Assembly (NCBI GenBank): GCA_964648665.1
Contig: CAZYOA010000010.1
Location: 1-62,962, forward strand
From: an uncultured Planctomycetales bacterium
GTDB lineage: Bacteria; Omnitrophota; Gorgyraeia; Zapsychrales; Aceulaceae
Direction: 5' to 3'
Length of the DNA stretch: 62,962 nucleotides
Shown here: piece after piece, positions 1 to 55,298 of the stretch
How positions within the stretch are numbered: position 1 is the stretch's first letter
How the letters are laid out: the number at the start of each line of letters is the position of its first letter
Translations under genes and position numbers: made by a program
The notes under the pieces: model-generated
Database searches by the model: none
What the model was told of the DNA's origin: nothing
Seen by the model: the letters and a program-made list of their open reading frames with translations, nothing else

Positions 1-1
1 G

Positions 2-3000
2 TCAGCTGTTGAACCTACTAAACAAGAAGCTCCTGAAGAAACTGTTGCTGAAGAAATTAAAGAGTCAGATGTCAAACCTGCCAAGCAAGATGCTCCTGAA
101 GAAACTGCTGCTGGAGTTGCCCAAATTGACATCGCAGTTGTTCAAACGGCAGCTGATGATTTCAAGACTAGAGCTGATAAGTGGGAAGAAGGTGCTCATG
201 ATGGCGATGGTATAAGTGCAGATTTAGTAGAGCTTGCAAATATGCTGAAGGATGTGGTAAATACAGAAAACGGAAAGGGACAAAAGATAGCATCTTCTAT
301 TCTTGGTAGTTTTCTTGAAAGAATGAAGAAAGAGTTGTCGTTAACAAAAGAGACAATTCAGCCACAAGCTTTAGTTGTTCAAGATAAAGAAGAAATAGTT
401 CAATCTGGCAAGCCAAAAGAGAGTAACGGTGTTAAGAAGAAGAAAGCTGATCCTAAAAAAACTAATCTTAAAAAATCTGATCCTGAAGAAGTCATACCAG
501 CAAATATGCGCATTTCTTTTCTTGAGTCAGATAATAAAATCGTTGAGATGTTTGTCTTGTTTAAAAAACAGGCAATTAAGAATTATCAAATATATATAAC
601 GAGGACGCAGCAACATAATGAGTTAGAGAAAAGCGTGCAAGTTCAGATTCTAGCATTTAAAAAAGTTATTGAGAACGCAAAGAATGAAATGAAAAAAAGT
701 ATTGAGAAAATTGGGTCTGACAATCAAGCTTTCTCGAAAGATTTAGAGAGAATACAAGAGCTGATTGCCTTGCTAGATGATGGTCTTCAAGAACAAATAG
801 AGAGAAGCCAGCAGCTTAAAAAGCAGGCTCAAGAGTATAGACAAGAAGCTGTTGAAGCGTATCAGGCGTATTTTCTTCAGCTTAACGAGCTTTATGAAAA
901 AGTTCAAGAAGCTCAAGGAAAAGAAAAAGAGGGGCAAGCGCGTGTTGAGGATCTGTTGAGAAGAATTGCACAAGTAGAACAAAGAATTGAAAACCTTAAG
1001 AGTAAAGAAGAGAGCTTGGAAAGTGAAGTCTTTGATAGCTCTTTTCAAGTTGATGAAGATGCATCTTGGATTGCAGCATTCTTAGACTATCAGCAAATGG
1101 GTGACGCTTTATCAAAAGAACTTCAACAAAAAATTGATAGCGCAAAACAAAAAGTAGAAAAGAATAACCCTGAGCAAAAAGAAAAAGAGCGAAAAGAGCT
1201 AAGAAAAATGATTGATGCTCTTATTGAGAGCTTTAAAGGATATTTAGAAGCATTAAAAACATCTTGGCAGAATGTGATTGCACAGCAGGAAGTTATAGGA
1301 ACAGCTGAAGCCGATATCCTAATGACAGGAAGAAACAAAACAAAGGTAATTAAAGAAAAAGCAAAGCTAGAAAGACAACTTGTTACGGAAGAAAATCGTC
1401 TTTTGGCTCTTGTGTCACAGCGGGAATCGAACGAGATACAAATGAATAAATCTTCTGATGATGTATCTGCAAAGCTTGCCACCGTTGATAATATAAAGAA
1501 AAAAATAAAGCAGCTGGGAATCAAAATTTTGAGAGTACAAAAACTTTTGGTAGACGAAGAAGATCAAGAAAAAGTCATTCAGCAAGAAATAAATCAAAGA
1601 AGCCAAAATGTTAAGAATTTAGAAAAACAAATAGAGATTATAGAGAAGAAAATTAAAGATCTTCAGCAAAAAATTGATGCGTCGATCGGTAAAATTAAAT
1701 GCCAAGGAGTAAAAGCTGATAAATTCTTTGCTATAGAGGAAAGCGCAAGAGAGGAAGTAGAAGAAGCTAAGGAGGCGCTAGAGGAAGACTCGCTTAATGG
1801 TTCTTTGCCAGAATCTGATTTGCAGTTGGTTATTATTCAGAATCAAGACAAAAAAGAAGAGTTGCAAGATTTAGCGGATCAACTGGAGGCTAACTTAAGG
1901 CTTTTGATGAATGAGGTCAATCTTTCTAATTTATCAGAACGTATCGATAAGATCAAAAAAGCATTAAAAGATATGAGGATTAAAATAAAGGAATATATTG
2001 AAAGCGAAAAATCAAATCAACAAACAATGAATATGCTTGTAAAGTCAAAACTTACGGTTATTAGCGACATTATCGAGATATCTCCTCGGCATGCTCTTTT
2101 AAAAGATTTGATAGAAAAAAACAAGGTTGAGATTGAAAAACTTATTTCGGAAATCAAACAGAAAAGAAAATTAAAGAAAGAGCAAGAAGCAAGACGCGAA
2201 CAGCTGGAAAAGAAAATTCGAGAGCAAACAACTGCTATGCAACACGCAAAAAATCAAAAAGAAATTCATCAAAAGACGATTAAAAGAGAGCAAATTTTTC
2301 TTAAAATTGATCAAGAGCAGATGGTTAAGCTGGGTAATTTCTTTGATTCTTTAAAAAGTCAGCTTGATCAAATTCTTAAATCTGCTGAGAGTATTCAAGG
2401 AGAGGTTTTGCTGAGTCGTCGTGTATTAAAGGTTTTAAAGTCTGCAAAGGAGAGGCGTGTTAAGAATTTACCTAAAATAAGAGAAGAATATCTTGAGCTA
2501 AATGCGGATTATCAGGATCTTGAGATGAATGAGAAAAAACTATTTCGACAGATCGAACAGCTAAAAAAGAAAATTATTGGTATTGAAAAGCAAAAACAAA
2601 TTCTTGAAGAACGGGAAGCTCAATTTGATATAACGCTTAAATATAATTTAGAAAAGATAACTGAGGCAGAAAAGGCAGAGCGTCGTTCTTCTAAGGAAAT
2701 AGAAGCTCTTAATATAAATTTAGAAGAATCGGGAAGAAAGATAGAAGCTGGGTGGATATTATCAAAAGAATCTTCCGAGCAAACAGGATTGGCACAAGGG
2801 AGCCAAGATGCTTCATTGCAAATTCTTGAAAGTTTTTCAAGGATCTATGCTCAAATTAGAAAAAGATTGAATGCTCTTGAGACCGAATTTGGAAGGCATC
2901 AAATAGGAACAGGAAAGAAGAAAAAAGATGATCTTAATCTAGCATCTGCTTTGAAGGAAGTTTCTAAAAAATTAGCAGAGAATCAAGAAACTCTTTCTCA

Positions 3001-6000
3001 AGAAAATTTATTTTATGGTCAGGCATCTAAAGATTTACAAGATGCAGGGCAAAAAGCAAGAGATTGGGAAAAAGTTTTAAATGGTATTCAGGGGTATTCA
3101 GTACAAGGCCAGGAAGCTTTACGAGATATTCCAGAATTGCTTGAGAAGCGAAGAGCTTCTTCTTCGCAAAAGAATACCGCTGCTCAAAAGCAAGCTGATT
3201 TTCTTTTAAGAACTTTGCGTGATTGTTTTGAGAACCACTCTCTTTTTATCAACACCTGGAAAGCTGTTAAAGAAAAAAGGGATGAGTATCTAGGCCAAAA
3301 GGCAAAGTTAGAGGTTTTATTGAATGAGGCAAAAAGAGTCTATCGCGAAATAAAAGCAGACACACTTAGCAAAGATTTACCTTCAAAGATAAAAAAGATA
3401 CAGCAACTTATTAATTCTGTTGATTTCAAATTGTCTGAGAAATCAAAAGAAGTAGAGCAGTTGAGAAAGCTTGCTCAAGGATATAAAATGAAATCTCAGA
3501 CATTGTATATTCAGTATCGAAATAAAGCTAAAGAGTTTGAGAATAAATATCAGGCGGCTAAAACGACAGGAGATAAGGCTCAAGCGGAAATTGATGAAAA
3601 GCAGCAGAAAGAATCAACATGGCAAGAAAATCTTAAAACATTAAGAAGCAGGATAAAAGAAATTGAGAAATCGCTAAGATTTAATGCGAGCACTCAAGAA
3701 GCACAAGAAATTATTATTAAGAATGTTGATGAAATAATTGCACAGATTAAGGCCGACATTCAAGCTTTTGAAAAAGAAGAAAAAGATTTTAAGAAAATTC
3801 TAAAAGAAACTAATCTACAGCTTGAGAAAGCCCAAGCCGTTGTTAAAAATACAGCAGCAGAAATTCAGAAACAGGAAGATGTAACAAAGAATGCAGGCAT
3901 GAAGAAAAGAGGGGCAGTTGAGTCTATGATACAAAAAGATCATGCTATTGATTGGAATGCATCTGATAAAGAAGAAATGATGGGAGAAGAGAGCGTTTTA
4001 ATTTCAGAAAAAGAAAAAGCTGAGAAAAGTTTTAAACAAGCAAAGCAAGAATTGTTGTCTTTAGGTGAAAGCATTCCACTCGTTTTAAGTCAGATAAACA
4101 AGAGATTTCCTGATGGAGCAGTAATAATGCGTCAATTGTATAAATTTGTTAATCCTCGGGCAATGGCAGAAAGAATTTTTAGCATTCAAAAGAAATTACT
4201 TGAAGAATTAGAAAATCGACGAGTGCTTCATCAGCTTAAATTTGATAATTTTAAAGAAGAAAAAGAAAAGCTTAGCGAAAAAGTCACGCGCTGGCGCTAT
4301 TTTGTGCGCCTAACTAAACAGCGTTTAAAAAGGGCTTGGCAGAATAAAGAAAAGACTCAAGATCAGCAATCAGAAGTAAGGCGAACGCAACAAAGGGCCA
4401 CCGATCAAATCGAAACAATAAAATCCAGACAGATGTCTCTTGCCCGGGTTATTGGTTCACTTAAAAAGCAGAGAGATAATATTGCTACAATGAAAGGTCT
4501 TGTAGAGTCCGAATTAAGAATACTAACAGATGAAATAGCAGCAATCGTTGCGGAGATTAAGAATTATCAGAAAACTCTTAAAGAAGCGGACGATATTGTA
4601 AAGAAAAATAAGCCTGAGATTGATAAACTTCAGAAAGAAGAAGAGACTTTATTGATACAGATAGACGCGATTGAGAAAAGCATGGAAAGATTACACGAGG
4701 GAACAGCAAAAGCAAACGGAAAAGCGTTCTCTGGTAATAATTTCAAGCAAGAGATAGGCGATGAAATTAAAAATAAAAATGGGTTTGATAGTCAATCCGA
4801 AGATTTAAAGCAGAAGAAAGTTGAGCTAATGAGTGTTCAGCAGGCTTTGGAGAAACTGCAAAAAGATTTCTCTTATGCGGAAAACAGATCTTTCTCATTT
4901 AAGCTGAGACTGGCTTTAAAGCTAGCCCGCCAATTTACTTTGGAGCCTAAAATTGAAACTTTGCAGTTCGAACTAGAAGAATCTCGAAAACAGGGAGAAT
5001 ATATCCAGAAAAGCTTAAATAAGCAAATAGATTTGCTGGGACAATGCGATCAAGAACTTATTCAAGAGCAAAAGAATCTTAAAGAAGCCGAGAGAGAAGA
5101 GAGTAAGCTAGAAGATAGCATGACTGCTCAGAAGAACGCATTAAAAATATATCAAGTTCGATTAGAGAATTCTTTAGAGAACTTGGAAGAAGAAGAAAAG
5201 AAGAAACAAGATATTGGAGACTTCCTAGCTTATCATCGAGCGGAGTTAGACAAAATTACAAAGGAGAAGGCTGCGGCTACAAAAGTTTTTGATTCGGCAG
5301 AAAAACAAAAGAATGCGCTGGCAGAAAAACAGGGTTCTTATAAGCAATATGAAGAGTGGAAAAGAGAAATGGATGATCTTTATGCGCGCTATGCAAAACT
5401 GAAAGGCAAGGAAGCGGATGCTTCTCTTATGTTAGAACAAGGCAAGGCAGGCGAGGTTCTTTTATGGGAGGCTGAAATATATATATATCGAGCAATAGAA
5501 AAGAAACGACAAAAGTTGCAAGCTATTGAAGAAGAAGAAAATAAAGAGCTTGAGAGTTTATCTGGTTTGAGAGAGGAATTTGAAGAAAACGAAATGAAGC
5601 TGAAAGCTGTTCGTTCTAAATATAAGGAATGGCAGCAGAAAGCGGAAGGATTCTCTCAAGGGATAGAGGATGCTAAGGTGGCATTAGAAAAGAATGCAAG
5701 AGAGCGCCAGAAACTTCAAGAGTTTTATGACGAAGCAGCAAAGCAGAAAATCGAGGCTGAAAGAATTCTAAGAGAGAAGCAGGGTGAGGATGTACCACTA
5801 AGCAAAGAAAAAGAAGAGGCTAAAAAAGCGTCTGAGAAAATAGAAATAACAATTGAGAAGCTTTTTATTGGTATTGATAAAATAAAGCAAAGACAGCTAA
5901 ATGCGCAGAAAAGAACAGAAATGTATGAGGATAGTCTTGCAGAGGTTCAGAAGGAATATCTTCCTCGAGTATCTTCTTGGCGAGAAATTGAACAGTGGAT

Positions 6001-6050
6001 AGTCGAAAGTGCGAAAGGCGAGGACGATGCTGAACTTCAAGGCCTAAAAA
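2..6050 (+). other. N-terminal coiled-coil region of the giant protein (~2,000 aa)
   Basis: E/K/Q/L/A-rich sequence, almost no Pro, continuous heptad-like pattern. It ends at SSAVARSASSS and is followed by a hydrophobic helix (LWAIGLGVAGGIGVIGVIVFGWFLI, ~6150-6230). Confidence 0.85.
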
Positions 6051-9000
6051 AAATCTCTTCTGCGGTTGCTCGATCTGCAAGCTCAAGTGTTGTTTTAAGC
6101 CAGCTTGGGTCGGAATTCTCTGCAATATTGTGTCTCAATGTTTTTTCTTCGTCTCTTTGGGCAATAGGCCTAGGGGTTGCTGGAGGTATTGGCGTCATCG
6201 GTGTCATTGTTTTTGGGTGGTTTTTGATAAAGCGTCATATGGTGTTGCATCTAAATGTTCCATCTTCTTCTCCAGAGGTTGAGAATTATTTGTTGAAAGA
6301 ATTTGATGAGCTGGATAAATCATTATTAAGTAAAAGAAAAAGATTTTCTTATTTTCTAAACAAAAGACTGCTCGTGTCCATTATTCGTGCTTATAGCAAA
6401 AGAATAAGAAATGATTTCTCAGAGGATCAAGGTGATCTGGAAGAACGTTTTATTTCTAAGGATGATGAAATAAGTCCTCTTATTAATCGAATAGCTGAGG
6501 TATTGGGTGTTCAAAAGATTAAAGAGGAAGACATGAAGTTGTTCGAAAAATTCACTAAAAAACCAGAAATAAATCTTAATACTCTTCTAAAACCACTAGA
6601 TTGTCATACGGTGTCAATGCTTGGACGATTTGACTTAGCACTTTTAAGAGCGATTAATTTTGATTCTTCTGAAAATCGCTCAGAGGCTTTAATACAGTTT
6701 AGAAAGAATCAACGTTTAAGCATACGGCAAGCGGCTCAAAGATCTGTTATTTCAAAGAAGGAATACGAAGAGATAGAACGTTCAGGAGTTATTTCATCTA
6801 AGAAAGGAAAAGAGGTTTCAGGCGATGAACAGGTGGCAGAAGAATTATTCTTTGAGCCGGAACCGAAAAAAGTTTCAGAGGGTCAAGGTCAGCTTATTAG
6901 CTATTTGACTTTAAGCATAGCTAAAGCTGAAAAAGGAGTTACCAACGCTTTTAGAAGAAAGATTGCAGAGTGCATCGAGGCGTTAACTTCTTTTGCTAAA
7001 AAGAATAATTTGATTATTAATTTTGATATTAATAAAACTTTGAAAACGATTCTTCCGATTGCTGTTCATCAGGTAGCAAAGCGGATTTCTCCTAATCCAG
7101 AAAAAACTTTAAAGGTTGTTCTTAATCATTTGCCTGAAAATGGTGCTATTGCTTTTGAAGTGGATGGGCCTTATTTGACATCGACGGGATGTGTTATTTT
7201 TCAGCTCAAGGAAGCAAGAAGTCGCACTAAAAAAGATAAGTTAATGAGGTTAAGGGCAGCGGCACGGAATGAAATCGATCAGCGAGAGGAATATTTAAAA
7301 CTTGAGGTTCTTCTTGGTCTTTTCCCTGAGGCTAATCTTGCTGTTTTGAAAGCGGTATTGAATGAAATCGATCAGAGAGAGGAATCTCTAAAGGCTGATG
7401 TTCTTCTTGGTCTTTTCCCTGAGGCTGATCTTGCTGTTTTGAAAACGGCATTAACGAAAATTAAAAAGATTAAACAGAGAGCGAATGGCCAGAAAAGTGG
7501 AGTTGTTCATCGCAATGAAGTTGTGGTGGCTGACGTTTCTCATTTGACAGAAGCACAAGCGCAGAAGCTATATAAATTAATTGAAGATTTAAGGAATCGA
7601 AAGGGTTTTAGTTTCGCTTTCGAAGGTTCTTTTACGGTTGCATTTCAGAGCAACATTTTGGAAGTGGCAATTCTTAGAGATAAGAAATGGCAACAGATAG
7701 AAAGATACGAGTTTAAAAGTTCATCAGCGATTGTCTCGCCGGTTGCACCTGCTTCGAGTGCTCCTGTTTCCATGCCAATTCAACATAATTCCTTTGTTAT
7801 GCCGACTGTACCGCTTGCATCACCTTTGATATCTAGCGCGATATTCTTGCTTAGTCAGAATGGATCAGGTCATCAAGCAGGTAAAGCAAGAGGTGAGTCA
7901 TCAGGTCTTGGTATTCTTTCTGATTTATCTTTTATGGCTTGGATTTCTAAGAAGCAAAGCGCTCCAAATGTTTCTTCTTCATATATATTGACTTCACAGT
8001 CGCTATCAAGAAAATCAACTTCCTTAGACGGAACGATTTCGATAGCGACTTTTTTATTTAAATATCTTGCCGGTTTTCGCTCACTCTTTCTACCGTGGCT
8101 GGGAGAAGATTTCGATGCCGGCATTTCTTTATCAGTGGCGAGTTCAATACTTAATCTTTCTACAAGAGCTTCATCTGTAGCGGTTCTTCTAAGTATTGAG
8201 ATTTTGTCATACGGGAGCAAGAAGCTTACTTATTTTTCTCATTCCAACATACCGTTTCCTAGCGAACTAGCGAGAGGGGAAGTATATTTTATTCCTGAAG
8301 CTGAGGTTTTCTTGGCGAGCAAGATAGTTTGTAATTCAAAGATGACTCGTCATCATGGCCCTTTTCTTTTTGTGCACGGAAAAGGAAAATTTGGTCAGCT
8401 TTGCCTGGAAGGAACGGATGTTCCAGTTTCCGAATATCTATTTCTTCTTCAGAGGGAATTTCAGGTAAGCCAGATAGTCGTTCTTTGCTGTAACGAGGGA
8501 AATAATAATATAGATGTTCCTGAGGGGATGACAATTATATATCCTACGAGCGATGTTAGCGACTTAAGCAGGGCTCTTGATATGGATTCTTTGACAGGTA
8601 CTAATGATTTAGAAATGTTTTTTCAGGCGCATTTTTCTGAAATGTCTACGAGTGAGTTTCAAGGAATTCAGAATTTTTATCAAGCAGATTCATGGATATC
8701 AAAATCTGGTTCAAGTTCTTTAAGAAAGACTTTAGCGGCCTCTTTCTCACCTATCAATACTTTTGATCGCAACAAAAGATCTTTTTCAAATCACGCGATA
8801 AATCGAAGAAAATTTATTAAGATGAGTGCTGGTGGTGCAGGAGCACTTGGTTTCTTCGCAGCGTTTGGATTTATTCCTAAAGAAGGTAAAGCGCAAGCCG
8901 AGGTTGCTGATGGCGCAACAACTTTAAACAAATTACGAGAATGGAAAATCCTTTTTGTTACGGGTGACAAAGATGATTTTGGTGAAGCTAACAGTTTATT

Positions 9001-12000
9001 TGTTATGAGCGCAGATGGTTCAGATAAGAAAATTCTGCTAGAAGGCGATGATGTTTGGGTTGATTCAGCATCTTGGTCTCCTGATGGGCAGATGATTGCA
9101 TGCATCAATGGTGGAGATTTGATTATTTTTAATCGAGATGGAAACGTTTTGATTGAATCTGTTAAAGAATATGAACATCAGCAGTTATTTATAGAAAGTT
9201 TTTCTTGGAATCCTGACGGCAAATCGATATTTTATGCACAAGATGGCGTTGGAATCTTTGAGTTTACGATTGAAATAAGCAAAACGATTCAAGTCTTAAG
9301 GACAAGTAGGCAGGCTGTTGATCATTACCCTATTTTATCTTCTGATGGAATGGATTTAGTTTTTATTCATAATGAATTTGCTACAAATTTTTATATTAAT
9401 TGTATTAGGCCATATGGTTCTTATGAGAGCTTAAATGAAGATGAATATATGGAAAATCATTTTAATAAAAAAAATCAGAACCATTTTATAAATGAAAATA
9501 TAGATGTTCTGTTTCGGGGGAAGTCTTGGGGCTGGAATGTCGATCATTTTATTCAATGGGTTCCAAATAGCGATAAGATTATTTTTTCTGACAGAGGGGG
9601 AATTCAGAAAGTTTATGCTCTTGATTCTTGGACAAAAGAGTCGGAAGAGATTTTTAGTTCAGAGTCAATGCGCTATATGCGGCTTTCGCCTAACGGGAAG
9701 ACCTTGGCTTATATTGAAGATGCCCCGAAAGAAATTGTTGTTTGGGCTATCGAGGTTAATGGGAAAAATAAGCGCAAGATGAGTGCGTTTCCAACTAACG
9801 AATGGCTAAGCGGAATGAAAGTATTAAGCTGGTCTCCTGATAGCGAGTATCTCGGTGTCGCGGTAAACACAAATACATATATTTTAAATAAAGATGGTGA
9901 AATTGTTCATCTGATTAATCATAAAGTTGATTCTATAAAACATCTAGATTGGTCACCGAAGAAATCGTCTTCATCGCTTTTTCTTGCAATTCTAGATTTC
10001 GGAAATTCTTCTCAAGCTGATATCTTTGGTTATTCTATTATTGCTCTTCTTGTTGCTTGGGGTGTTTTTTATATTTACCCAATGCTTTTTGGATCGTCAA
10101 TTAATTATCAAGATCTTGATTGGAATGATTTTTCTATTAAAAAGAAGAAAAAGGGCATTAAAGCGTTTGAGAGATTTATTAAGAATGTTCAAGATCCAAA
10201 TAGTTCTGAAACTTTTGTTCTTGCTCGAGATGTTGAAACCGCTATGGAATGCATTAATAGTCGAGTTGGGCTTATCGATCAATATGGTATAAATTTTGCA
10301 GCTTTATATAAAGAGTTGCTTGAAGAGTTTAACGGCAGACAAAATTTTTATGAGTTTGAAGTTTTAGCATTCGCGAAAGAGCTTTTAGAAAGAAAAGAAA
10401 AAGAACTTATTTCCGAAAAGCTTAAAGTTAAAACGAACAAAAGATCTTCTTCGAATCTTTCTGTAAAATTCAATTACACAAAAAGTGAAGAGCTTTCTTC
10501 CCCAGCAGTATCTGCTTCAAAGGCTTCGTCTGCGGCTAAGCAAAATAAAAATAAGAACACTTTTCTCTATCATTGCTTTTTTGACATTTTAGGTATGCCA
10601 AGGTATTTCCCTGAGAATCAGGAGCCACATAATATTATAGATTATATGAATTATACCGTTCAGGCCTTGTGTACGACGAAGAAGTTTAAGGATAACGTTA
10701 CTAAAATTCTTGATTTATTAAAGAAAGCTTCAGGAGAATCATTGGATTATCTTGAAACTGTGGCCAAGGATATTTATGCACCTTTAGCTAATCGTGTTGG
10801 TTTTTTAGAAATCGCTGGAGAGCTTGTAGATGCTGTTTTTAAAGCTCGTTTTCCAGAGCAATGGGCGACGGCTGAAAATGAGATTCTTCGGGCTTTAGGA
10901 GGGATGACACGCGGCCAAGCAAATCGTTATCTTTTAGGAGTTAGCGCAAAAATTAAATCTAAGCTAGAGGACACAGGTATTGAAGTTGAAGCAATTTATT
11001 TGAGAGTTAAGGGGGCGAGTGCTGCTTTTGAAAAAGTCAAAAACAAGAGGGGCGACAAGACTTCGTATGCAAAGATTGGAACATTGCAAGATTTGCTTGG
11101 CCTTCATATTGTTTTAAAAAATAATGATGATTATTGGAAAGCTGTTGGGCTTTTAGCAGGCTGGGACAGTATTTTTGCCTCATATCAAGATCTAGGAGGA
11201 GAGCTAGATGAGGAACAAACGGAACAAAAAAGTCGTTTTAAAAAGGATAAATATGATGCACAACATTTTGGCATTAATATTCCTGTGCCTTCAAAGGTTA
11301 ACGGTGAGACAGCGTTTGTCATGATGGAGATAAAACTTTTTGATCCTGATAAATATATGTATTTTCGATACAGCCAAGAAGTTGCTTCGTGGATTTATGA
11401 GTTAAAAAGACGCTATCCGAATCAAGAATTTTCCTTAGGTGGATTAACCACCATGTCAAGTGATCCAGAGACAACCTTTGAGGATCTTTATTCTTATCTT
11501 CAGAATTGGACTTATTTCTTCTTTGTTCAGGACAATGATTTTGACGAGTGCTGCACTCTAAAACCTGTAGGACTTAAAGCAGGCGTTATTATGGCGGATG
11601 TTTTGAGTTTACCTGGAGTCGATAAGTTCTTGGCTCGTACGCAGACTAACGCTAAATTGCTGGAAGGGATGAACAGCCGTGATCATGCATTGGTTTATGG
11701 CTTTAGCTTTGGAACAACGAGTCAAAGAAAGAAGGAGCCAGCAGTCAAGAGATCTGGTAAGACTGTCATCGAAAAACTTAAGGAGGGTGATTTTATTCTG
11801 GTTGATTCAACAAAAAGGGCAAAGCTTACTGTTCAAGAAAAAGAGAAAATAATGAGCGAAGCAGGACGGTTGATGACTCTTCTGAGGCTTCAGCTTAAGC
11901 CTGGAGATTTTTATAATATGTCCTTGGAGGATGAAAACGCGAGAAAGATATCGTCCCGTGGCACAAAAAAGTTAATCTTGGCAGACTCGACCGGAGGAGT

Positions 12001-15000
12001 ACGAAGATTTTTGGAGAAAAATGAAATTGCGCGAGGTATAGATTTTGAAAACGCGCTCCATATGTGCGCTGTTCTTGGTCTCTGTGAAGTTTCTATAACG
12101 GCTGAAGTTGCTGAGCAGGCGATTGATGGAAAGTCATGGCTTACTTATCGGGTTGTGACTATTAAGGTAAAAAAGGGTGGACAACGAGCTAAGAAGACTT
12201 TTGTGGAGTTGACGCTAAGCCTTGATTATGAGCGTCCTGAACTAATGAAAGATATTGTTAAAGCTATTGCTCGAGTTGGAGCCCAGATTTTCAACAGTCA
12301 ATATTTTGAAAAAAAGGCTAAGCTGACGATATCAATTTTTGAAGGAAATATTCTAAAATTAAAAGATCTTTTAGGCGAAATTAAAGCGCTGGATAAAGAA
12401 CCTAAGAAGAAGGACGAGAATTTTGTCACAAAAGCAATACACGTTTTTGCAGATCTTGGTAAAGGCCGCAAGAGTTTTGAGCTTACGCTTATTAGTATTT
12501 TGTCAGTATTTGAAGATTTAAATATTCGTCTTGATAAAAATATGAATACATGGCAACCGAGTGAACGTTTTAATGGGCCGGATAAGGAATCTGTTTGCTA
12601 CTCTTTTCAAGTTGGAATACCGGATGCTTTAGATGAGAAAAAGTTGATGGAAGAACTTTATCAAGCAACAAATGGTGGAAGCATCGCAATTCAGGTTTCT
12701 TCATCAATTCTTGCTCTTTTCTCAGCCGATAATCTTATGACCGATGAAACGCTTGCTCAGATAGTTTTAGGGATTATTGTTGTAGCATGGATTGCTAAGT
12801 GGCTTTTTCCGTTTCTTTATTACCCCTTAAGACGCGCGATGATATTTATTCCTAAGAGTAATACTTGGAGAAATTTAACTATAAAACAACGAATAAGAGG
12901 GATGAAAGATTTTATAAGATTTTTTGAACATGAAAGAACAGTATTAATTTCTAGGAATATGACTGGTAAGAAGATGGCAAAGATTCTTAACAAGCAAATA
13001 CATTTCTCTGAAAAAGGATACAAGAGAGGTTTTGCAGCTCTCTACGGTATTTTTCTAGAGAGACTTATTCCATCAGAGGGAAGTTTTAGTGCGGAGAGCA
13101 TGCCCAAGATAATAATAGAAATTATTACGGAAAATAGAAGCTTGTTAAAAGGATCGACAAAGATTTCTTTTGCATTTGCTGTTCTTAGTGGAAGCAAGAG
13201 CGAGACAATAATTAAGCCTTGGAGGGAATCTGAAAAGATTATTAAAGGTGTTCCTGCAGGATTGAGAATAAACCAAGCAAAAGCATTATCTCAAATTTCA
13301 AATCGAAGTTCTTCAAAGCTTGTTGCACATCGCGTTGAAACAATGGCTGAGGCACGCAAAGCTTTAGAGCTTGGCATGAAGGCTGTTGAAATTGATATTC
13401 AGCTTACTAGAGATGGATATTTGATTAGCTTGTGGGGAAATGTAGGGCAAGAGCGTTCAGAACTTGTTTATAATTTAGATCTTCAAAGTATTCGAGAGAT
13501 TTCAAATAAAGAAGTTTTAATTGTTAGCGAGCTTCTTGACTTGATAAAAGATAAAAATGTTGATCTTTTTGTTCATCTTCAAGATTGGGCGAAAAATATT
13601 GAAGGTTATACGGAAGCTTATCTTGAAGCGATTGCAAATTTGATTAATAAGATTGAAATTAAGGGAAGAATTTTTGTTTTAAGTTTTAATAAGGATACTT
13701 TTTTGTTAAAAAGCATCGCCTCTAGAGTTTTGCCTGGAAAAATTATTGATTGCAAAACTCATAGTAAAGCTAATGTTATTGAGGCTTTTGTGGATCTTGT
13801 TAAGTATCGAGATGCACTTATTTTTATTTATCCTGAATTCTTAAGTGAAGAATTTATTAAGAAAATGCATAAAAATAGATTGCTAGTAGCTACAAAATTA
13901 GAGGGTTTAGAGAAGAGCTTAATTCCAAGTGTTGATTTTATTTTTGTTGATGATTATCAAGGGTCAATTAAGAGGGGATCTTCAAACCTTATTAGAACTG
14001 CTAAAAATGCGAATCAGTTTCTTTTGGCGTGTGCCTTAAAGGTTAACATTCCTTGGACGTTTTTGTTTAATAATAACGAGCACGCCAAAGATATTGTGAT
14101 TGAAATTGTTAAGCGCTTTGTTGCTGAAGCATGTGACAAGAAACAAGAAAATCTTCAATTTGAAGATTATATTGCAATGGGTGATAAGCATTTTAGAGAA
14201 ACTCGTGAGTGGCTTAATAGTAAGGCTTTATCTGGATTGCTTGATTTTTATAACCGCCAAGAAAAAAGAGATGGAAAACAGATAACTATTTTTATGTTTG
14301 AACAGCTTGGTTTGATTGAGAAAACAAAAAGCGCACGAGAGATCGTTCATCTTTCCGAATTAACGGATCTTTTGAAGAAGAATATTTATAAAATTACGCC
14401 TTGGAAAATTCTCGTTCAGAAGAATTTAAATGGTAAGAAAATTATTTTAGAAATCTTAATGGAAATGGTTCGCCAAGATGCTAGAGATGTTCGAGGAGAT
14501 ATTCGAAATCTTGATGAGAGAAATTTTCGTAAAAAGAGAATTTTCTTAAATGGTGAAGCCGTAAACGGACTTTATCAGTATTATGCTGTGTATTATTTTA
14601 AGAAAGATGATCGTGATGGAAAAAGAGTTATTGATTGCATCTTAGAAGATGTGGCTTTTTTGCAAAGGCAATATTCTTTTAAGACGGTGCCGAGACTTTC
14701 TAGTTTGACAGCGATGATCATTCAGTCAAAAATTCCACAGATTGAATGGAAACAGTTAATTGAGGAAAATCCAGACGGACCAAGCATTGTCGTTGAAATT
14801 GTTGATGCAATACCTGGCGTTACGGTTAATCGTGCAACAGGCGAAGTCGCTGGTCTCTCCAAAAAGATTGTTTATGAGCAAGCTGTTCCTGCCTTAGGGG
14901 GACAAAATATTTTTGGACTGTATCAACATTTTTCATATCAAGGCGTTACAGGACGAAACAACCTTCTTAAAGCTATTCGTGATTTTGTTAAAAAAGAAAT

Positions 15001-18000
15001 ATTGCAACAAAATAAAGCAAAGAAAGCTTCTTCGAATCTTTCTAAAAAAGAAAAAGCAAATATTTGCAAAACACTTAATAAAATATCTGAGATTACAGAA
15101 GTAAATTTGCAGGAAAATATTAATAGTGTTAAATTTCACGATATTTTAAATAATGCTAGAAAAGCTAGTGAGATTGCGAGGGCTAATAAAGTAGTAGAAG
15201 CTTTGTCGATTTTGATGCGCATTGCCAAATACAGCGTATTAGATCGATTTGGATATTTATTTCTTCGGCCTCATTATGTTGATGCTATTTTTCAGATAGA
15301 TAATTCTTCTAAGAAATCAGAGGAATTTTTTGCAGGCCTCCTTATTCTAGATACTGGTAAGAAAAATTTTGATGATTATGTGAAGTGCCAGGCAGCAAGA
15401 TGTTTGTTAAGTATGGAAGTTCTTGAGTATTTGCCTGAAACGCTAAAAGCTTTAATGATAAATTCATCTGTTCAAAACAGCTGGGTGTCTGGTGCTTGTG
15501 GCGATGCTTTACAAAGATTTTCTGTTAAGAATAGGAATGTTAGAATTTCTTCAAATATTCTTTTTATTTCTTCTAAAAAGAAAGCGCTTTCTTCTTCACC
15601 GTTGTTGTTTTTTCCAGGTGTTCCTCTTGAAAGAATTATTCCTTGGATTTCTTCGGAATATTGGATTTCATTATTTTCTGCTTTTGATGGATGGATTGCG
15701 GTAGCAATATTTTTAGGACTTGTTATATCGCTGAGAGTTATTCATAGAAGACAGGGTGATAGATTTGTAAAGCGGCTTAGGATGCAGCTATTGGATAATA
15801 ATACACGTAGAGCAGAGCGCCTTATTGATAATTTTAGAAATATATTTATTCGAAAATCAATGCTTAAGCCGTTAGCCGAGGTTTATCTTGATGAAAGAAT
15901 CGACCATGAAGTAAACAAAGTTGTTGTGAAGAAGATTATTTTGCTTCTAGAGCGCATAAGGCAACGAAGGGTTTTTAAGATTTGGGTCAAGAGTATTTTG
16001 ACAAGCTTGATGTTGGACGAACACATTACGCCTCAGTCTCAATCTGAGTATTTCTTTAAGTATGATGGATTCACTGAAAGTGTTAAAGGCTATATTATTC
16101 CTCATATAAAAAGTATTTTAAATTATAAAAATAGAAATGAACAAGTGCGGATACTTTCAGCTGAAGGGGTATCTATTTTTAATGATGGATCTAAGTTTCT
16201 TGATGCCATTCAAGCGGCAACGTTCTGTCTTGAAGCAGGCATTCGTCCAGAAGAAATTAAAATTGTTGTTGTCGCAAGAAATCCAATTTCTTTGTGGCAA
16301 GGGTCTAGAGGTTATTTCTCTTTAAATTGGTTTTCTGATAATGAGTGTAGCCTTACAGGAGACAATAAGAATTTTATTCATAAATATTTTTATGTTACAG
16401 ATAAAGGGAGCTTGAAAGTAAAAGATTTTGTTTTAGATATGATTGAAGTGCAGTGTTCTTCATTGAAAGATTTTAGAGTTCGCAAGAGTCTGGATCGATT
16501 TGATATTATTATGGGATTTCTTTATGAGTACAAAGAAGAGTTGCGACAGGAGAAGGGTGATAAAAGCGATCTTCTTACAACAAATATTATTGCGGCTAAT
16601 CATTATCATAATTTGAATTCAGCAGGACTTCTTGCGGTGACTACAGAAAAGTGGATTAGAAATATTTTTACTTATAATCAAATTGTAGGTGGACCTGGCT
16701 TGCCGCAAGTTTCCATTGTGACAACAAGGTATAAAAATCTTAAGTTGAGGGGAAAAGTATCAATTTATAAAAAGAGTATAGATAGGATAACTGTTGACGT
16801 TGTAGATGGACAGTTTTATGCGCTGGCTAGCTGTATTACAAAGACTGGTTTTCAAAAGAATTCTGGTCAGGAAGAGAAGATTTTGAGGCGAGCATATAAG
16901 CTTGCGAAGAAAATTCATGCAAAGCAAAAGCGATCAAACGGAGAGCCGTATATCATTCATCCTTTTTCTGTATTTTGGTCATTGTTCGAAGATTTCAAGA
17001 TTTCGGGACACTTTTGTATTCCTGAATTGTCTTCATCGGGGTATAGCGCAGAGATTATTATTGCTGTGTTAGCGCTGCTGCATGATGTTTTAGAAGATTA
17101 TAAAAAAGATGTCAGAAGCTTAACATTAATTAAAAAAAGACAAGAAGCTGTTAATCTTGTGAGCGCGTATTTGTTGGAATTTGTAGAAGATAAGCGTGTT
17201 GTTGATTTCATCATGAAAGGATTAGATTTCTTATCAAAAAGAATTTGTGAAAAGGGAGTTGTTCAATCTGAAGAAGATGAAGTCGATTATGAAAATAGGC
17301 TTGTTAAGGCTCCAGACTCTGTAAAAATTGTTAAGATTGTTGATCGATTAGCTAATGTGAAAACTCCACGATACAAACGTACTATAAAAGGAATTTTAAA
17401 GTATCGAGAAGAGGCAAAAAATCTTGTTAAGAGATTTAACTCTCCTGCTTTAGCTCAATTTGCAAATATATTCTTTGAAGAAGTTGTGCATCTTGATTCG
17501 CCAGAGATCCGCAAGAATTCGTTTCCCTCTAGAGCTAAAAAACCAAAATTCAAGAATAAGAATTTTTCTAAATTTTCTATGCAGAGAATTGTTCAGAATT
17601 TTTTCTATATTTTTGCAAGCCACCAATTAAGCCAAAGAGAAATAATACCTTTAGAAGAGAATGTATTTCCTGGAGATGGTAGAAAGAATGAAGAGTGGGA
17701 TATTCAGGACACTCACCGGATTCGAAGAGTGCTTGCGATCGCAGTCGTTAAGTGTGTTAATTGGCTTCTATTTTTTAATGATATTTATAAAGGACGAAAA
17801 ATAACTCGATTATTTTCTATTCTTTCTTTTCTTGCGGGAATTCTTTTTTCTATTAGCTTGTTTCTTATGGAAAAAGATTTCTCAATTCAAGAAGAGAATG
17901 ATTTAAGTTATGATTATCGTGTTCGAGGACCGACACAAGATCTTAAAGATCCTGCTTTAACCCTTCCGCCGTTTTCAAAAACACATGCCTCTTCCAGTGT

Positions 18001-21000
18001 TGTTATTAATCAAGATATAAAAAAGAAAATAGAAAAAAGATATGGAATACATAAAGTTTTAGATTCTTTAAGAGTCGATCGCTTTTTGATTCAAGAGAAA
18101 GGCGGCAATCTTGCGAGTTTTAAAAAAGAGCTTCAAGATTTGTTGGATCAAATTGGGGGCATGTCAAATCGATCTATTCCTTTTGATTTTTCATGGCAAA
18201 TTGTTTTAACAAGTGATGATCATCAAGCCTATGGCATGTCTGATCAGTTGTCGTATGTTATTTATAAGGGAAACACTGCAGAGGTAGAAATTATTTATGT
18301 TCATATGGCGTTTTTTGAACAATTGGAATGGTTTGAAAAGTTTAGCATTTTATCAGATCTTTATTTAGAAATATTAGAAGATTATCTAGAGCGGTATGCA
18401 GAAGTTCGGCAACAAGAACAAATTCATTATCAAGAGTGTTTAAGAAAAGAAACTCCAGATAGATTTTCTTATGAGGTGTTCAAAGAGAGATATTCTCATT
18501 TATCGTGTCGAAAACTTCAGGAAATTTTTGGAAACTTTAAACAAAATAAGTCTAGTTCATCAATTAGTGTTGGTATAATAGAATTGCCGCATCAAGAAGT
18601 TGTTATAAATCGTCTTACCTCGTCCGTGGCTGGTGGGGGTCGATTTTTCTTGGTGCGGCAACGCTTATCTTCTCCTATCAAATCATCTTCAAATCTTAAT
18701 CGATACAGTGCCAAGCAATTGCAAATCCTGAAATCTTCTTTAGCGAGAATTCAGACCGATATTAGAGAAACCGGAAATCCGATAGTCGCATTTGATTCTT
18801 TTTATAATTACATCAAGGGCTTAAATTTTAAGGGATTAGTTAGTACGGTTGATTTGTTTGTTGATAACTATACGCCTGAGTTGTGTAAAATTGTGATTGA
18901 ATATTCATCTGAACAGCTATCTTCGAGAAATGTTGTTATTCAGAAAGTTTTAAGATCTTATTTTGAAGTTAAAAAAGATAATTTCTTTGAATCTTGGGAT
19001 TTATTAAGAGCTTGCATTATTGATATTGTTGAAGAAGATGAGCATTTAGCTTCTTTTTGTTTAACATTGTCTGCTGACATGTTGTACTCAGATGAGCTTG
19101 AAAGGGGCGTTGAGAATTTTACTCAGAAAATTGATCAGCTTGCAAAACAAGTTGATTTTGGAAAGAAAACAACAGAGAATTCAATTTATATTAATGTCTT
19201 TGAAATGATTCGAAGACGGTTACAGAATGATATCAAGGAGAATCAGCGAAATGATAAAGAAAATGATTTTATGCCGTTTATTGTCATCGCTGAAAAAGAA
19301 GCTTGGCTTTATGACAATAATGCTTTTGGAGCAATTAAGCCTGAGGTAAGAGCGCAAGTTGCTTTTCTTTTCAACCAAATAGCTCAGGCATACTGGGAGA
19401 TGGGTGCTTTTAATTATGATTATATTTTAAAAGCAAGAGTGCATATTAGGAAATCTTTAGAGATTGTTCCAGGTTTTGAAGAATATCGCCATCATTTGAT
19501 TCATTCTTATCTTTTAGCTATGAGTTATTTCTTAAATCTTTCTGATATGAAATCTGCAAAAAAAGAGCATGCTGAGGCTAAAAAAATTAATGATGAATTG
19601 ATTGCTGAGGATAAGGTTTCAATGGTGGATTATGTTAGTTTTTATTCTGCAGTTTTTATGCTTGCTGAAAACAATTTAGTGGGAGCAAAAAGAGCGCTTG
19701 TGACGTATGTTCTTCCGTATATTAGTCGTGAAAGAATGTTTGATTGTTTTGATCAAATATTTTATGAGGTTGGTTCTGATCTGGAAGAAAGAGTTTTAGA
19801 TTTCTTTATTTCCCTTTTAGATGATAAACATCTTTTCAAGACACAAAGAATGCTCATTGTATCGCTTTTAGTTTCTTTAGATGAAGAAGATTTGATATTT
19901 GCTTTTGTTGGTCGCAAATTTATTGAAATTTCTTTGATGATTGATCAGTGCCAATATGGTAAAGCACAGGGCGAGATTGAAATTGTTTGGGAGGCAAAGC
20001 CTGGGGATAAGAGAACTGTGGAGCAAAGAGAAAAAATCTCTGATTTAATTAAGTTTTATGATTTAGCTGAAAAAGCTCTTGAGCGAGAAAATGTTGAGTT
20101 GGCATTATCTCATTTCTTGGAGATCTCTAAGCTTAATCCAAAAGATGAAAATGCTAAGAAGCAAATTGAGATTTTAAAGATTAAAAAGGAAGCTGCAAAT
20201 AAGACGAATAAATTTATACAGCAAATTCGGGAGTTTTTAAGATTAGCTAGAAACCAGACAGTAAGCAAGAAAAAAGATAGAGCTGTTGGAAATCTTCAAA
20301 AAGCTCAAGATTTATTGGATTTATTGCCAGCTTCCAAAGAAAAGAAGCTTGTTCAGGCTGAATTTGATCGAACAGCTAAACTTGTTGAGGAGTTTAAGGC
20401 TGATGAAAAAGAAGATATTGTTGTGTCAAAAAAGAAAAGGGAAAAGAAGCTGAAAGTTGTTGCTGCAGAAGAGAAAATTGGCGAGGAGATTGTTCAAGCT
20501 GATAAGCCGGTGCAAATTTACTTTACAAAACAAATGAATGATGATTTTGAGAAAGAGTTTTTTGCTGATCAAGAAAGATTTAAGTTAGCAATTCTTAATA
20601 AAATTGGACGTGTTCGTTTGGGCGAAAATCATGTGTTGGTTGCTTATGTTACGGGATCTGAGCGCGTTTTTCGTGTGCGCAGTAAGAAGGATAGATTAAT
20701 TTATACATTTTTCTATGATGCACAAAGTGAATCTGAAGTTTGGTTGTTTTTTCATTTTGATAGTAAAGGTGGGAATGTTTATAAAACTTTAATCGATAAG
20801 ATTAAACACGCGTTAAGTAATGTTGATAAAGCTTTAAACGAAGGTACGAAAATTATGAACATTGACTCTTCTTCAAAACAGAAGAAAACATCCAGTTCAA
20901 TTGTTGATTCTCTAAATAAAGTAAAGCTAAAATCTTCCTTAAACATTGAAGCTGGACGAAAATTTCCTAAAAATGTTGCCAGTAGCTACATGTCAGTAGA

Positions 21001-44139: not shown

Positions 44140-45864
44140 ATGCAGGATTGTTTAACGGTTTTTCTTAAAAAATATTTTTGTAAGCTGATTTTGTCTTGCA
44201 AATTATTTTTTAAATCAAGATTAATAGAATTTAGATCTCAATATAAAATTTGGGCTAAAGCTTCTCTTCCGTATCTAGGCATTTTCATTGCTTTAGCGGC
44301 TTGCTACAACACTGTTTTTCGTTATGGCTATGCGCATCACGATGAAGTCAATTTCTTTCTTTATGGAAAAACTTATATTCTTCACTCTGTAAGACTTTTT
44401 GTCTTGTCTATGGGGCGCTTCATTGGCGCTTATATTGCTACGGGTTTAAATTATCTTGTAAATTCTTTATTTGATCTTAAGGTGACACGCTTTTTTATGA
44501 TTGTTCAGCTTTGGATTTCTGCTTGTATTTTGATGCGATGGCTTAAAAGTCATTTTTTATCAAAGCGAGATGCATTTCTTTTTAGTGTCGCACTTTTTAC
44601 GCTTCCTTCTTTTGAGATTATGGCGTCTTTTGCGGCAGGATTTAATAATTCAACTGGCGTTTGGATGGGGCTTTTGTCTGGAGTTCTTGCCTTTGGCATG
44701 TCGATTGAAGGTACAATTTTATCCCGTATCAAATCAAAGTCGTTTATTTTCTCTGTCATATTCTTTATTTTAGGTCTCATGGCTTATCAGCCTTCAGCTG
44801 TGATATTTTGGATTATTCCAGCACTAGTTATTTTGTTTTCATCTTTAGATAAGTTTGAAGAAACAAAACAGCGCTTGATTAATATTTTTGTATCTGGTTT
44901 TTTTGCGTTAGGGATTTATTTTCTTATTCTTCAGGTTTTCAAAAAAATGCTCTCGCAAATTGCAGGAGGGTATAACCCATATAGTCTTTCGACTGATTAT
45001 TTTGGAAAAATATATTGGTTTTTCTCAGAAGCGGTTTCTAATTGTCTTAATTTCTGGAATGTCTTTCCTAAAAGTTTATATGTTGTCTTGGCATCAGTTT
45101 TTATAGGATTTTTAACTCTTGTTATTTTGACTTTACGAATCAAGAGAGCGCAAGAGTCTAAAGAGGTAAAGAGCATCAGCATTAAGATTATAATTCTTTC
45201 TTCTGTGTTTTTATCGTGCCTGTTCTTAAGTTTTTTACCAAATCTCTTATCAACAGGAAATTTTGCATTTTATCGATGTCTTTCGGGACCAGCAACAATT
45301 ATTCTTGCTTTGCTTGTTTGGGGCATTTGGCGCATGACACAAATTTTAAAATTTCAATCGCGAAATGTTTTTTCTCTTTTGCTGGCGATTTTAATGATTT
45401 TCGGACTTCTTAGGGCACATCATAACGTTTTTCGTTATATTGTTTTTCCAGGATATATTGAAATGGATGTTATGAAAAATGTCTTGAGAAATGAATTTGA
45501 AACCTATAAGCGAATTCATATTATTCATGCCGATCAAGACAAGTTGAAAACTTATTATGATGAATTTGGACTTGTATCATCGAGCATGGCACAGAATCGA
45601 TTAGGCTTGGTTTCAGGCGGATATACTGAGATTTTTAAGCAAGATAATATGTTTCTTTATGGCATTCTTTTTGATTTTGATTTGCAAGAAGCAGAATTTT
45701 TATTTGTTCGCAATGACGATAGAGAAAGTGGTTTAGCATTTAAAAAAATTATTACAAGTTCAGCAAAAAAGCTTAAAACACCTTTTGATGAGCCAACTCT
45801 TGTTATAGACATGACGCGCCTTTATAAGACGGGTGCTCCTCTAGAATATCTTTTAATCCCATGA
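44140..45864 (+). CDS. Polytopic membrane protein, GT-C / glucosyltransferase GtrII-like
   Basis: About 10-11 hydrophobic helices, an acidic HHDE loop after TM1, AYQ and FYR motifs, and a soluble C-terminal tail. GGAGG RBS near 44128. Confidence 0.6.
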   Translation: MQDCLTVFLKKYFCKLILSCKLFFKSRLIEFRSQYKIWAKASLPYLGIFIALAACYNTVFRYGYAHHDEVNFFLYGKTYILHSVRLFVLSMGRFIGAYIATGLNYLVNSLFDLKVTRFFMIVQLWISACILMRWLKSHFLSKRDAFLFSVALFTLPSFEIMASFAAGFNNSTGVWMGLLSGVLAFGMSIEGTILSRIKSKSFIFSVIFFILGLMAYQPSAVIFWIIPALVILFSSLDKFEETKQRLINIFVSGFFALGIYFLILQVFKKMLSQIAGGYNPYSLSTDYFGKIYWFFSEAVSNCLNFWNVFPKSLYVVLASVFIGFLTLVILTLRIKRAQESKEVKSISIKIIILSSVFLSCLFLSFLPNLLSTGNFAFYRCLSGPATIILALLVWGIWRMTQILKFQSRNVFSLLLAILMIFGLLRAHHNVFRYIVFPGYIEMDVMKNVLRNEFETYKRIHIIHADQDKLKTYYDEFGLVSSSMAQNRLGLVSGGYTEIFKQDNMFLYGILFDFDLQEAEFLFVRNDDRESGLAFKKIITSSAKKLKTPFDEPTLVIDMTRLYKTGAPLEYLLIP

Positions 45865-47341: not shown

Positions 47342-47361
47342 ATATAAAAATCTCCCGCCCC

Positions 47362-47389
47362 TTGTTTTTTCGCCATTATATGCTATATT
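47362..47389 (+). promoter_or_regulatory. Putative sigma70 promoter for the subtilase gene
   Basis: TTGTTT-N16-TATATT with an extended -10 TG, about 120 nt upstream of the ATG. Confidence 0.4.
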
Positions 47390-54735: not shown

Positions 54736-54748
54736 ATTTTTATTATAT

Positions 54749-55267: not shown

Positions 55268-55298
55268 CCGCTCTCTAAATTATAATAACTTTATGAGA

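Follow-up and report, generated by a model that had tools for sequence, protein, structure and literature searches.

Can an export signal operate from deep within a giant bacterial protein? The question is raised by a stretch of DNA of 62,962 nucleotides (nt), hereafter the window, which covers positions 1 to 62,962 of the forward strand of contig CAZYOA010000010.1 (assembly GCA_964648665.1) from an uncultured bacterium placed in Omnitrophota, family Aceulaceae. The window carries a giant open reading frame (ORF) in which an initial annotation had noted, at nt 8700-9975, a serine (SSS) junction, a complete twin-arginine translocation (Tat)-type signal and a TolB-like beta-propeller closed by KKSSSS. 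In-frame translation confirmed these elements and their coordinates. Two explanations had been offered: the gene of a secreted protein was captured in frame, or cleavage at the SSS junction exposes the signal so that the unit is exported separately. Here we propose instead that the twin-arginine (RR) segment acts in place as a working internal export signal, paired with a transmembrane (TM) helix at amino acids (aa) 3261-3284, and that the propeller would be displayed between them as a periplasmic loop. Judged from sequence, this reading has about an even chance of being right, and a topogenic role of the RR segment as such a slightly better one. Nucleotide positions refer to the window, and aa positions count from the first ATG of the ORF.

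The twin-arginine segment

Translated in the frame of the giant ORF, nt 8300-10399 read SKSGSSSLRKTLAASFSPINTFDRNKRSFSNHAINRRKFIKMSAGGAGALGFFAAFGFIPKEGKAQAEVADG, then PD40/WD40-like repeats, then HLDWSPKKSSSS. The elements follow one another as SKSG-SSS-LRK, DRNKRSFSNHAI, the motif NRRKFIK, the hydrophobic (h-) region MSAGGAGALGFFAAFGFIP, the c-region KEGKAQA, EVADG, and PD40-type repeats up to HLDWSPKK-SSSS (Table 1). All 19 residues of the h-region are uncharged and 11 are Gly or Ala, and both lysines of the c-region lie within five residues behind it. In an AlphaFold2 (AF2) model, the small-x-small site A-Q-A ends 4-5 residues ahead of the confidently folded domain, the place at which a mature protein would be expected to begin after removal of its signal.

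The RR motif goes beyond chance. A scan of the 14,606 aa for its pattern, [STN]RR.F[LIVM]K, gave a single match, where 2,000 shuffles averaged 0.009, and a TATFIND-like rule (RR, two hydrophobic positions and at least 13 uncharged residues) picks out this site alone in the protein. Furthermore, the NCBIfam profile TIGR01409 (TAT_signal_seq; curated cut-off, 16.7 bits) scored the segment at 24.7 bits within 60 aa, 20.3 within 484 aa and 18.1 within 2,500 aa, and found no other match over the remainder of the giant protein. None of eight controls scored with it, these being six signals of the general secretion (Sec) type from related propellers, one of the giant protein's own TM helices and the internal anchor of P0018, a 4,759-aa fragment of another giant protein.

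The segment is not N-terminal, as there is no in-frame start codon within 50 codons upstream. The initial annotation had placed it about 2,900 residues inside the protein; the deep internal position stands, and the figure is amended to at least 2,935 codons, since the frame is open from base 2 of the window. The accompanying premise that Tat signals work only at an N-terminus proved too strict: tethered internal signals direct export in dual Sec-Tat proteins (PMC5449189), such as the Rieske proteins Sco2149/QcrA, Sco3746, polyferredoxins and YkuE-like proteins (PMC5449189, PMC3471235), and about 8 residues between the preceding TM domain and the RR motif suffice (PMC5449189). Thus, no cleavage is needed for an internal signal to function. 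In these proteins an internal tethered RR motif precedes a segment of low hydrophobicity (positive apparent insertion free energy, dGapp), positive charges follow, and an outside domain comes next; the low hydrophobicity and the charges behind bring about release from Sec (PMC5449189; PMC3471235). The tether, the positive (crude) free energy and the trailing lysines are all present in the RR segment.

The propeller and its probable membrane anchor

The AF2 model of aa 2820-3303 shows a disordered signal region, a propeller with predicted local distance difference test (pLDDT) values of ~90 and a long helix at aa ~3258-3282; the predicted strands would fit seven blades rather than six. In a Foldseek comparison with the PDB, the best matches were TolB (E 5e-14), with the propeller part alone aligning. 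PD40 (PF07676) scored 31.7 bits against a cut-off of 20.9. The domain thus shares its fold, its PD40 score and an extracytoplasmic family with TolB/PD40 propellers, but it lacks the N-terminal domain of TolB, stays under the cut-off of the TolB equivalog TIGR02800 (46.1 bits against 343) and belongs to a separate subfamily with the signature FSWxPDGKS..Y...GI.EF ... DH.P..SPD....FVHHEF..FY. Members of this subfamily (P0024, P0026, P0030, P0050, P0066, P0080 and P0125) matched at E 1e-28 to 1e-15 and 29-34% identity. Profile searches gave no cofactor-type domain match in the propeller.

Wherever the N-terminus of an inspected stand-alone relative is present, it bears a TM anchor or a signal of the Sec or lipoprotein type; two of these relatives (P0024 and P0066) have a C-terminal TM helix and a basic tail as well. 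Because the best PDB matches are TolB and the stand-alone relatives bear export signals or TM anchors, the propeller would belong outside the membrane, and the extracytoplasmic character of the family supports export here. The stand-alone homologues whose search the initial annotation had proposed were found, as a subfamily, but among the 150 best propeller hits none had the strict Tat consensus and P0094 (ARRVFLT) was the sole weakly Tat-like candidate. PD40 propellers also stand outside the membrane ahead of kinases, as in P0004; by analogy, and as a guess, this one might be a periplasmic binding or sensing domain placed before a RelA/SpoT-like module.

Directly behind the propeller lie two features that the initial annotation omitted, the TM helix at aa 3261-3284 and the cluster KKKKK. 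The helix is the second-strongest hydrophobic segment of the protein; it starts 15 residues past the SSSS run and is followed by DFSIKKKKKGIK. With this helix in place, a periplasmic loop between two membrane crossings becomes the simpler reading. The RelA/SpoT-like domain, which looks to be a cytoplasmic-type, nucleotide-using enzyme, begins 225 aa past the helix, with no hydrophobic segment between. On the other side, the nearest preceding TM-like stretch (aa 1959-1996) lies ~860 residues ahead of the RR motif; from the positive-inside pattern, it is probably a helical hairpin that returns the chain to the cytoplasm. The clusters KRH, NRRKFIK and KKKKK all fall on the same inferred side of the membrane. 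The local order of basic n-region, weak h-region, A-x-A, propeller, TM helix, basic cluster and enzyme reads as a type-I-like module.

In the mechanism that we favor, the chain upstream would be cytoplasmic and the NRRKFIK n-region would be kept inside, while the weak Gly/Ala-rich h-region would span the membrane in an N-in/C-out orientation and the propeller would be carried across. The TM helix at aa 3261-3284, 375 residues downstream, would then stop transfer and leave KKKKK and the RelA/SpoT-like module in the cytoplasm. If the route is Tat, the propeller would fold first and be moved by Tat, and the following helix would be integrated like a Tat tail-anchor; Tat can integrate a C-terminal TM anchor (PMC10924467).

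A block absent from a homologue and the parity of membrane crossings

An exhaustive search of representative sequences with aa 2450-3649 returned thousands of generic propellers and a sole real homologue of the flanks, P0018. In blastp, aa 2504-2607 of the giant protein aligned with P0018 2245-2342 at 35% identity and aa 3411-4156 with P0018 2348-3105 at 43-49%, so that, in this comparison with one homologue, P0018 has 5 residues at the position of the giant's 803 aa. The block contains an orphan stretch of 219 aa, the Tat-like signal, the propeller, the TM helix and about 120 more residues. The flanks in P0018 lie within a run of 3,705 residues that has no TM-like segment and holds NUDIX, GT5/GT1 starch-synthase and radical SAM domains, and it is therefore taken to be cytoplasmic. 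A block set into a cytoplasmic linker, or lost from one, must account for an even number of membrane crossings, as otherwise the chain downstream would come to lie on the wrong side. This block has one strong TM helix, and the RR segment is its only signal-like partner. We consider this parity the strongest argument that the RR segment may truly cross the membrane, and we propose as a general rule that cassettes in cytoplasmic linkers bring an even number of crossings.

P0018 has a pair of its own, KKSLAGSAIKR-ALIMFVAIVAFNIF (3706-3729) and WPWFLTVMMLIGLSFYTIV-KRRAQKQDKK (3905-3923), enclosing a loop of ~175 aa. It appears to be the Sec-type counterpart of the pair described here, with an ordinary hydrophobic anchor and the same loop design.

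The indel itself can also be read as the trace of a captured gene whose signal has become inert. In that case aa 1997-3260 would be exported whole behind an anchor at aa 1959-1996, or the propeller would be cytoplasmic. In principle, one N-in/C-out span is conceivable for the stretch at aa 1959-1996, propellers of the WD40-like type can reside in the cytoplasm, and no orthologue shows the motif to be conserved. However, a single span at aa 1959-1996 would put KRH and the homologue of the cytoplasmic linker of P0018 outside, and a cytoplasmic propeller would leave the TM helix at aa 3261-3284 partnerless and flip the RelA/SpoT-like domain and all later enzyme modules outside. Moreover, all elements of the signal (consensus, h-region, basic c-region and A-x-A) are intact despite the fully ameliorated composition of the block. 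We give an inert relic a slim chance.

The first of the two initial explanations, capture of a secreted-protein gene, was borne out in part. The block is absent from P0018, and stand-alone relatives do carry export signals, two of them together with a C-terminal TM helix and basic tail. Against capture, the signals of these relatives are of the Sec or lipoprotein kind, the block is larger than the signal-propeller unit, no Tat-secreted donor was found, and a foreign origin is not supported by composition (block against rest of the gene: GC, 0.361 and 0.354; GC at third codon positions, 0.279 and 0.280), with a codon-usage distance within the range of other windows along the gene. An in-frame cassette of ~800 aa with SSS seams, carrying the unit, would have been gained by the giant gene or lost in its relative. 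The radical-SAM module stands in a different order in the giant protein and in P0018, which indicates that modules have been shuffled. Neither the module that follows the cassette nor the one ahead of the signal retrieved anything when used as a query.

The proposed export route

By sequence, the segment may be called Tat-type because of its consensus motif, low hydrophobicity and c-region lysines, and we hold the Tat route as a tentative assignment with less than an even chance. Several observations weigh against it and against the internal signal more generally. Pfam TAT_signal (PF10518) scored 18.4 bits, under its gathering cut-off of 22.7. The free-energy values given here are rough, being crude sums of Hessa-scale numbers. 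The ~73 kb of contig covered yielded no tat genes, a motif scan of 25 short Omnitrophota loci gave none either, and no account of Tat in Omnitrophota was found in the literature examined. For close relatives, a fermentative life with cytoplasmic hydrogenases has been described, which would leave them few classic Tat clients. Protein and contig searches found no cassette-bearing orthologue that would attest conservation of the RR motif, and no close relatives of the fragment turned up in genome, metagenome or viral contigs (a word-indexed protein search gave distant PD40 proteins only). The stand-alone relatives use Sec-type signals, every assembly lacks the real N-terminus of the protein, and there is no known precedent for Tat exporting a loop that more than 11,000 further residues follow.

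A rival to the Tat route is an ordinary Sec/YidC internal signal-anchor, in which the propeller is exported cotranslationally through SecYEG and the RR consensus is inherited or incidental. In P0018 a loop of like design is built with an anchor that is clearly hydrophobic and of the Sec type, the stand-alone relatives of the propeller rely on Sec or lipoprotein signals, Sec components but nothing on Tat have been reported for Omnitrophota, and the other TM helices of the giant protein need cotranslational insertion anyway. Nevertheless, the h-region is very weak (crude dG, +4.8 kcal/mol) and followed by lysines, a combination that aborts Sec insertion in dual Sec-Tat proteins; the full N-RR-K-F-I-K would scarcely be expected unless Tat recognition had been selected for; and TIGR01409 is silent on the Sec-type controls. 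A Sec route is in our view rather unlikely, yet the most serious competitor of the Tat-type internal signal.

Relative to described systems, the internal Tat-type signal favored here would extend rather than repeat what is known. In dual Sec-Tat families, the Tat-dependent segment is the last TM segment and the exported, cofactor-holding domain is the C-terminus, and neither holds for the giant protein, which also has an A-x-A site and an extra strong TM helix. Tat tail-anchored proteins (hydrogenase small subunits and FdnH; PMC10924467) resemble it in their signal, folded periplasmic domain, TM anchor and basic tail, but their signal is N-terminal and their tail short, whereas the giant protein has very long cytoplasmic chains at both ends. 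Internal Tat signals and giant Omnitrophota proteins are each already known; what lacks precedent is the combination, with a cofactor-less domain that lies some 3,000 residues deep and is followed by another TM helix and more than 11,000 residues.

The 'archaeovorin-type' giants of Omnitrophota share with the present one the phylum, the many enzymes and TM helices and the nearby PilZ and T2SS-E genes (10.1101/2023.11.21.568195; 10.64898/2026.06.07.730766), but an internal Tat-type signal is not described for them and cleavage sites are not given. The 2026 survey recast internal signal-peptide calls as 'outside' and deemed them chunking artefacts (10.64898/2026.06.07.730766). For giant bacterial proteins (10,000 to more than 100,000 aa), both surveys openly leave it unresolved by what means the chain enters the membrane and whether it is cut up. 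The present site offers a fragment of ~480 aa on which Tat or Sec dependence can be probed while the signal is tethered. If it proves Tat-dependent, dual Sec-Tat targeting would extend to a cofactor-less loop domain deep in a giant chain.

Serine runs and possible processing sites

The giant ORF (nt 242-44059) encodes 35 SSS/SSSS runs, about 6-fold more than its shuffles (6.1 +/- 2.6); examples start at nt 6080, 8711, 9965, 10445, 12698, 15590, 23180, 24614 and 30539. Basic or small residues tend to precede the runs and L, I, V or A to follow, and their serine codons are mixed, which implies selection at the protein level. The runs bracket domains: aa 7647 and 8125 enclose an ATP-grasp domain, aa 2824 and 3242 the signal and propeller, and further runs adjoin an HD domain (aa 10100) and a GDPD domain (aa 4356). 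TM cores also keep close to the runs (permutation p about 0.001): of the six strongest, four begin 6-24 residues downstream of one. Runs are also enriched in P0018 (6 against 1.1), and the RelA/SpoT-like module is directly preceded by one in the giant protein, in P0018 and in P0028. Each edge of the 803-aa block has a run close by, 27 residues away on the left (encoded by TCTTCTTCA) and 6 on the right (encoded by TCTTCTTCG); the two runs are separated by 2,472 nt (824 codons). The SSS seams are thus real module borders, and they might be processing sites.

A 30-nt direct-repeat family (D5) also touches these seams, with the copies KRSFSNHAIN (nt 8774-8803), KRSSSNLSVK (nt 10439-10468, at the right seam) and KKASSNLSKK (nt 15020-15049). 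Modules at aa ~9470 and ~13785 (nt 28649-28720 and 41594-41650) open with [KR]RHRM[LV]WLIR[AS]ISD directly after an SSS run and look like internal paralogues within the giant protein.

The second initial explanation held that cleavage at the SSS junction exposes the signal. In its fuller form, a cytoplasmic cut at the SSS run of aa 2824-2826, or at KRSFSN 5 residues before RR, would free the Tat signal, with a later cut after AQA. Besides the enrichment and placement of the runs, this agrees with the 28-residue n-region, normal for Tat signals, that a cut at aa 2826 would leave, with the U32 peptidase and S8 subtilase encoded just downstream, and with the proposal, made without known cleavage points, that giant Omnitrophota proteins are cleaved (10.1101/2023.11.21.568195). 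No constant P1 residue was seen across the runs, though, and no protease is linked to the motif; Ser-rich interdomain linkers are common; the SSSS run past the propeller would face the opposite side of the membrane from the upstream SSS run; and tethered Tat signals work uncut. Direct support for exposure by cleavage was therefore not obtained, a loop between two crossings is simpler, and we consider cytoplasmic release of the signal quite improbable.

An orphan module at nt 7982-8719 (aa 2581-2826) contains FLFVHGKG and, 37 aa later, QIVVLCCNEG, an arrangement that recalls clan CD cysteine peptidases. As a candidate clan-CD (caspase/CHAT/CPD-like) protease it was set aside as a weak lead: the H-G...CC motif drew no support from Pfam, NCBIfam, PDB or homologue searches, and the single-sequence AF2 model of the module (pLDDT 35) is unusable.

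Processing could also take place at the signal itself. Given export, cleavage by signal peptidase I after A-Q-A is made plausible by the small-x-small site, though less likely than not; two products would result, a cytoplasmic one from the N-terminal side and one from the C-terminal side that starts with the anchored propeller, and the predicted neo-N-terminus would be EVADGATTLNK. Such a cut would be a simpler path to 'polyprotein' processing than an SSS protease. In flavivirus and pestivirus polyproteins, internal signals are cut by host signal peptidase. The likeness (internal signal, small-x-small site, ectodomain and TM anchor) is an analogy only, as theirs is a eukaryotic and viral system that uses Sec61 of the endoplasmic reticulum. 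A true polyprotein with pieces sorted singly, its signals cut in place after A-Q-A and its SSS seams perhaps by a dedicated protease, is improbable in our estimate. If true, one product would give a periplasmic propeller, free or anchored, and separate cytoplasmic enzyme blocks, which would amount to flavivirus-like processing in a bacterium and provide the first defined cleavage points for Omnitrophota giants.

Support for the assembled sequence

Another conceivable origin of the arrangement would be a nested gene with its own start, or a chimeric join in the assembly. A nested gene was rejected: no in-frame ATG, GTG or TTG occurs between nt 8645 and 8801, and the ATG at nt 8642, 54 codons before RR, has no Shine-Dalgarno-like sequence. 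Suspicion of a faulty join arises from the multi-copy patch at the left edge of the block (Table 1), inside which, at nt 8095-8111, the Logan unitigs break. An exact 43-mer from it (nt 8082-8124) reached 76x against 15x, and in other contigs copies ~90% identical to the patch sit between unrelated flanks; several giant genes may share it as a conserved junction or recombination segment. Its antisense frame is full of stops. Nevertheless, the depths on either side of the patch agree in two runs (15.5/14.4 and 7/9.3), the gene is present in the ENA, JGI and Logan assemblies alike, and the ENA, JGI and window assemblies make the same join. Because the depths match and three read-based assemblies agree, we accept the join. 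Additionally, nt 8450-8900 were recovered on single contigs from two independent runs with zero differences, and on the right-hand Logan contig by itself the frame stays open for 235 codons ahead of RR. A nested gene or an artefact is hence extremely unlikely. Bins of extra depth near nt 8600 and 10500 were not reproduced on closer look.

Table 1. Features of the giant ORF around the twin-arginine segment (window coordinates)
Feature	Position (nt)	Strand	Basis or remark
Giant ORF	2..44062	+	Open from window base 2; first ATG at nt 242, 14,606 aa from there
Uncharged hydrophobic stretch of 38 residues (aa 1959-1996), then KRH	6116..6229	+	Hydrophobicity scan
SSS (aa 2578-2580, TCT TCT TCA), about 27 aa short of the block's left edge	7973..7981	+	
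Patch of ~150 nt, about 20x flank depth in two metagenomes	7974..8124	+	Conserved or multi-copy junction DNA
803-aa block (aa 2608-3410), absent from P0018	8063..10471	+	blastp
SSS (aa 2824-2826), 28 residues ahead of the RR pair	8711..8719	+	
KRSFSNHAIN, seam-like, directly before RR	8774..8803	+	Repeat family D5, like KRSSSNLSVK
Twin-arginine motif N-R-R-K-F-I-K (aa 2854-2860)	8801..8821	+	Translation, Tat profiles, pattern search
h-region MSAGGAGALGFFAAFGFIP (aa 2861-2879), weakly hydrophobic, Gly/Ala-rich	8822..8878	+	Crude Hessa-scale sum, +4.8 kcal/mol
c-region KEGKAQA (aa 2880-2886), two Lys, A-x-A signal-peptidase-type site	8879..8899	+	Translation, AF2 model
TolB-like/PD40 beta-propeller (aa ~2891-3239), about 27 strands	8912..9958	+	Pfam/NCBIfam, AF2, Foldseek, homologue search
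SSSS (aa 3242-3245), directly past the last blade	9965..9976	+	
Strong TM helix IFGYSIIALLVAWGVFYIYPMLFG (aa 3261-3284), crude dG about 0.1 kcal/mol	10022..10093	+	Hydrophobicity, AF2 helix
KKKKKGIK cluster (aa 3300-3307), C-terminal side of the TM helix	10139..10162	+	Positive-inside signal
SSS (aa 3402-3404, TCT TCT TCG), right edge of the block	10445..10453	+	
RelA/SpoT-family nucleotidyltransferase-like domain (aa 3509-3638)	10766..11155	+	Profile search; 43-49% identity to P0018

The giant gene, its host and neighborhood

The frame of the giant gene meets no upstream stop in the window, and on an ENA and a JGI contig the same gene is called, from their first bases on, at 14,788 and 14,799 aa. 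Its real N-terminus therefore lies beyond every assembly; the gene is 5'-truncated and longer than 14,799 aa, and the positions given here are lower bounds. In the window (nt 2-241) it opens with 63-nt tandem units, SAVEPTKQEAPEETVAE, and the ENA and JGI gene calls begin at contig base 2. The first ~6 kb (nt 1-6000) have an A-over-T skew of 0.26, against about 0 elsewhere, and encode a Lys/Glu-rich SMC-like coiled coil at aa 1236-1550.

The protein is a sparse string of enzyme domains with a handful of strongly hydrophobic segments. Besides the SMC-like coiled coil and the RelA/SpoT-like domain, there are weak GDPD and radical SAM matches and circularly permuted ATP-grasp, HD/HDIG, PIG-L and GFO/IDH/MocA domains; it is a multi-enzyme, multi-TM protein of the kind described for Omnitrophota. 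The host assignment agrees with AccA, encoded downstream, which is 83% identical to that of a metagenome-assembled genome (MAG) of 'Candidatus Aceula lacicola' and 65-78% to those of many Omnitrophota MAGs. The sequence occurs in sequencing runs of marine metagenomes. Apart from the RelA/SpoT-like domain, the protein has a SpoT N-terminal (HD) piece at aa 5551-5628 (nt 16892-17125); alarmone-type enzymes appear to be embedded in this giant membrane protein.

Directly 3' of the giant gene (nt 44140-52666) follow genes for a 574-aa orphan, a U32 peptidase and an S8 subtilase of 1,718 aa with PKD and FG-GAP repeats, and beyond them (L085, 9582-20666) for a PilZ protein and a T2SS-E ATPase, the neighborhood reported for Omnitrophota giant genes. 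No tRNA or structured RNA was found inside the giant gene or the multi-copy patch, and the only two tRNAs of the window are at its end. Next to a series of short ORFs on the minus strand, which are 77-143 aa long and match no Pfam family, a 41-nt motif, ACCCACACGCTGAATTAATAACATTTTTAAG, occurs four times at nt 54311-55622 with a spacing of 367-466 nt.

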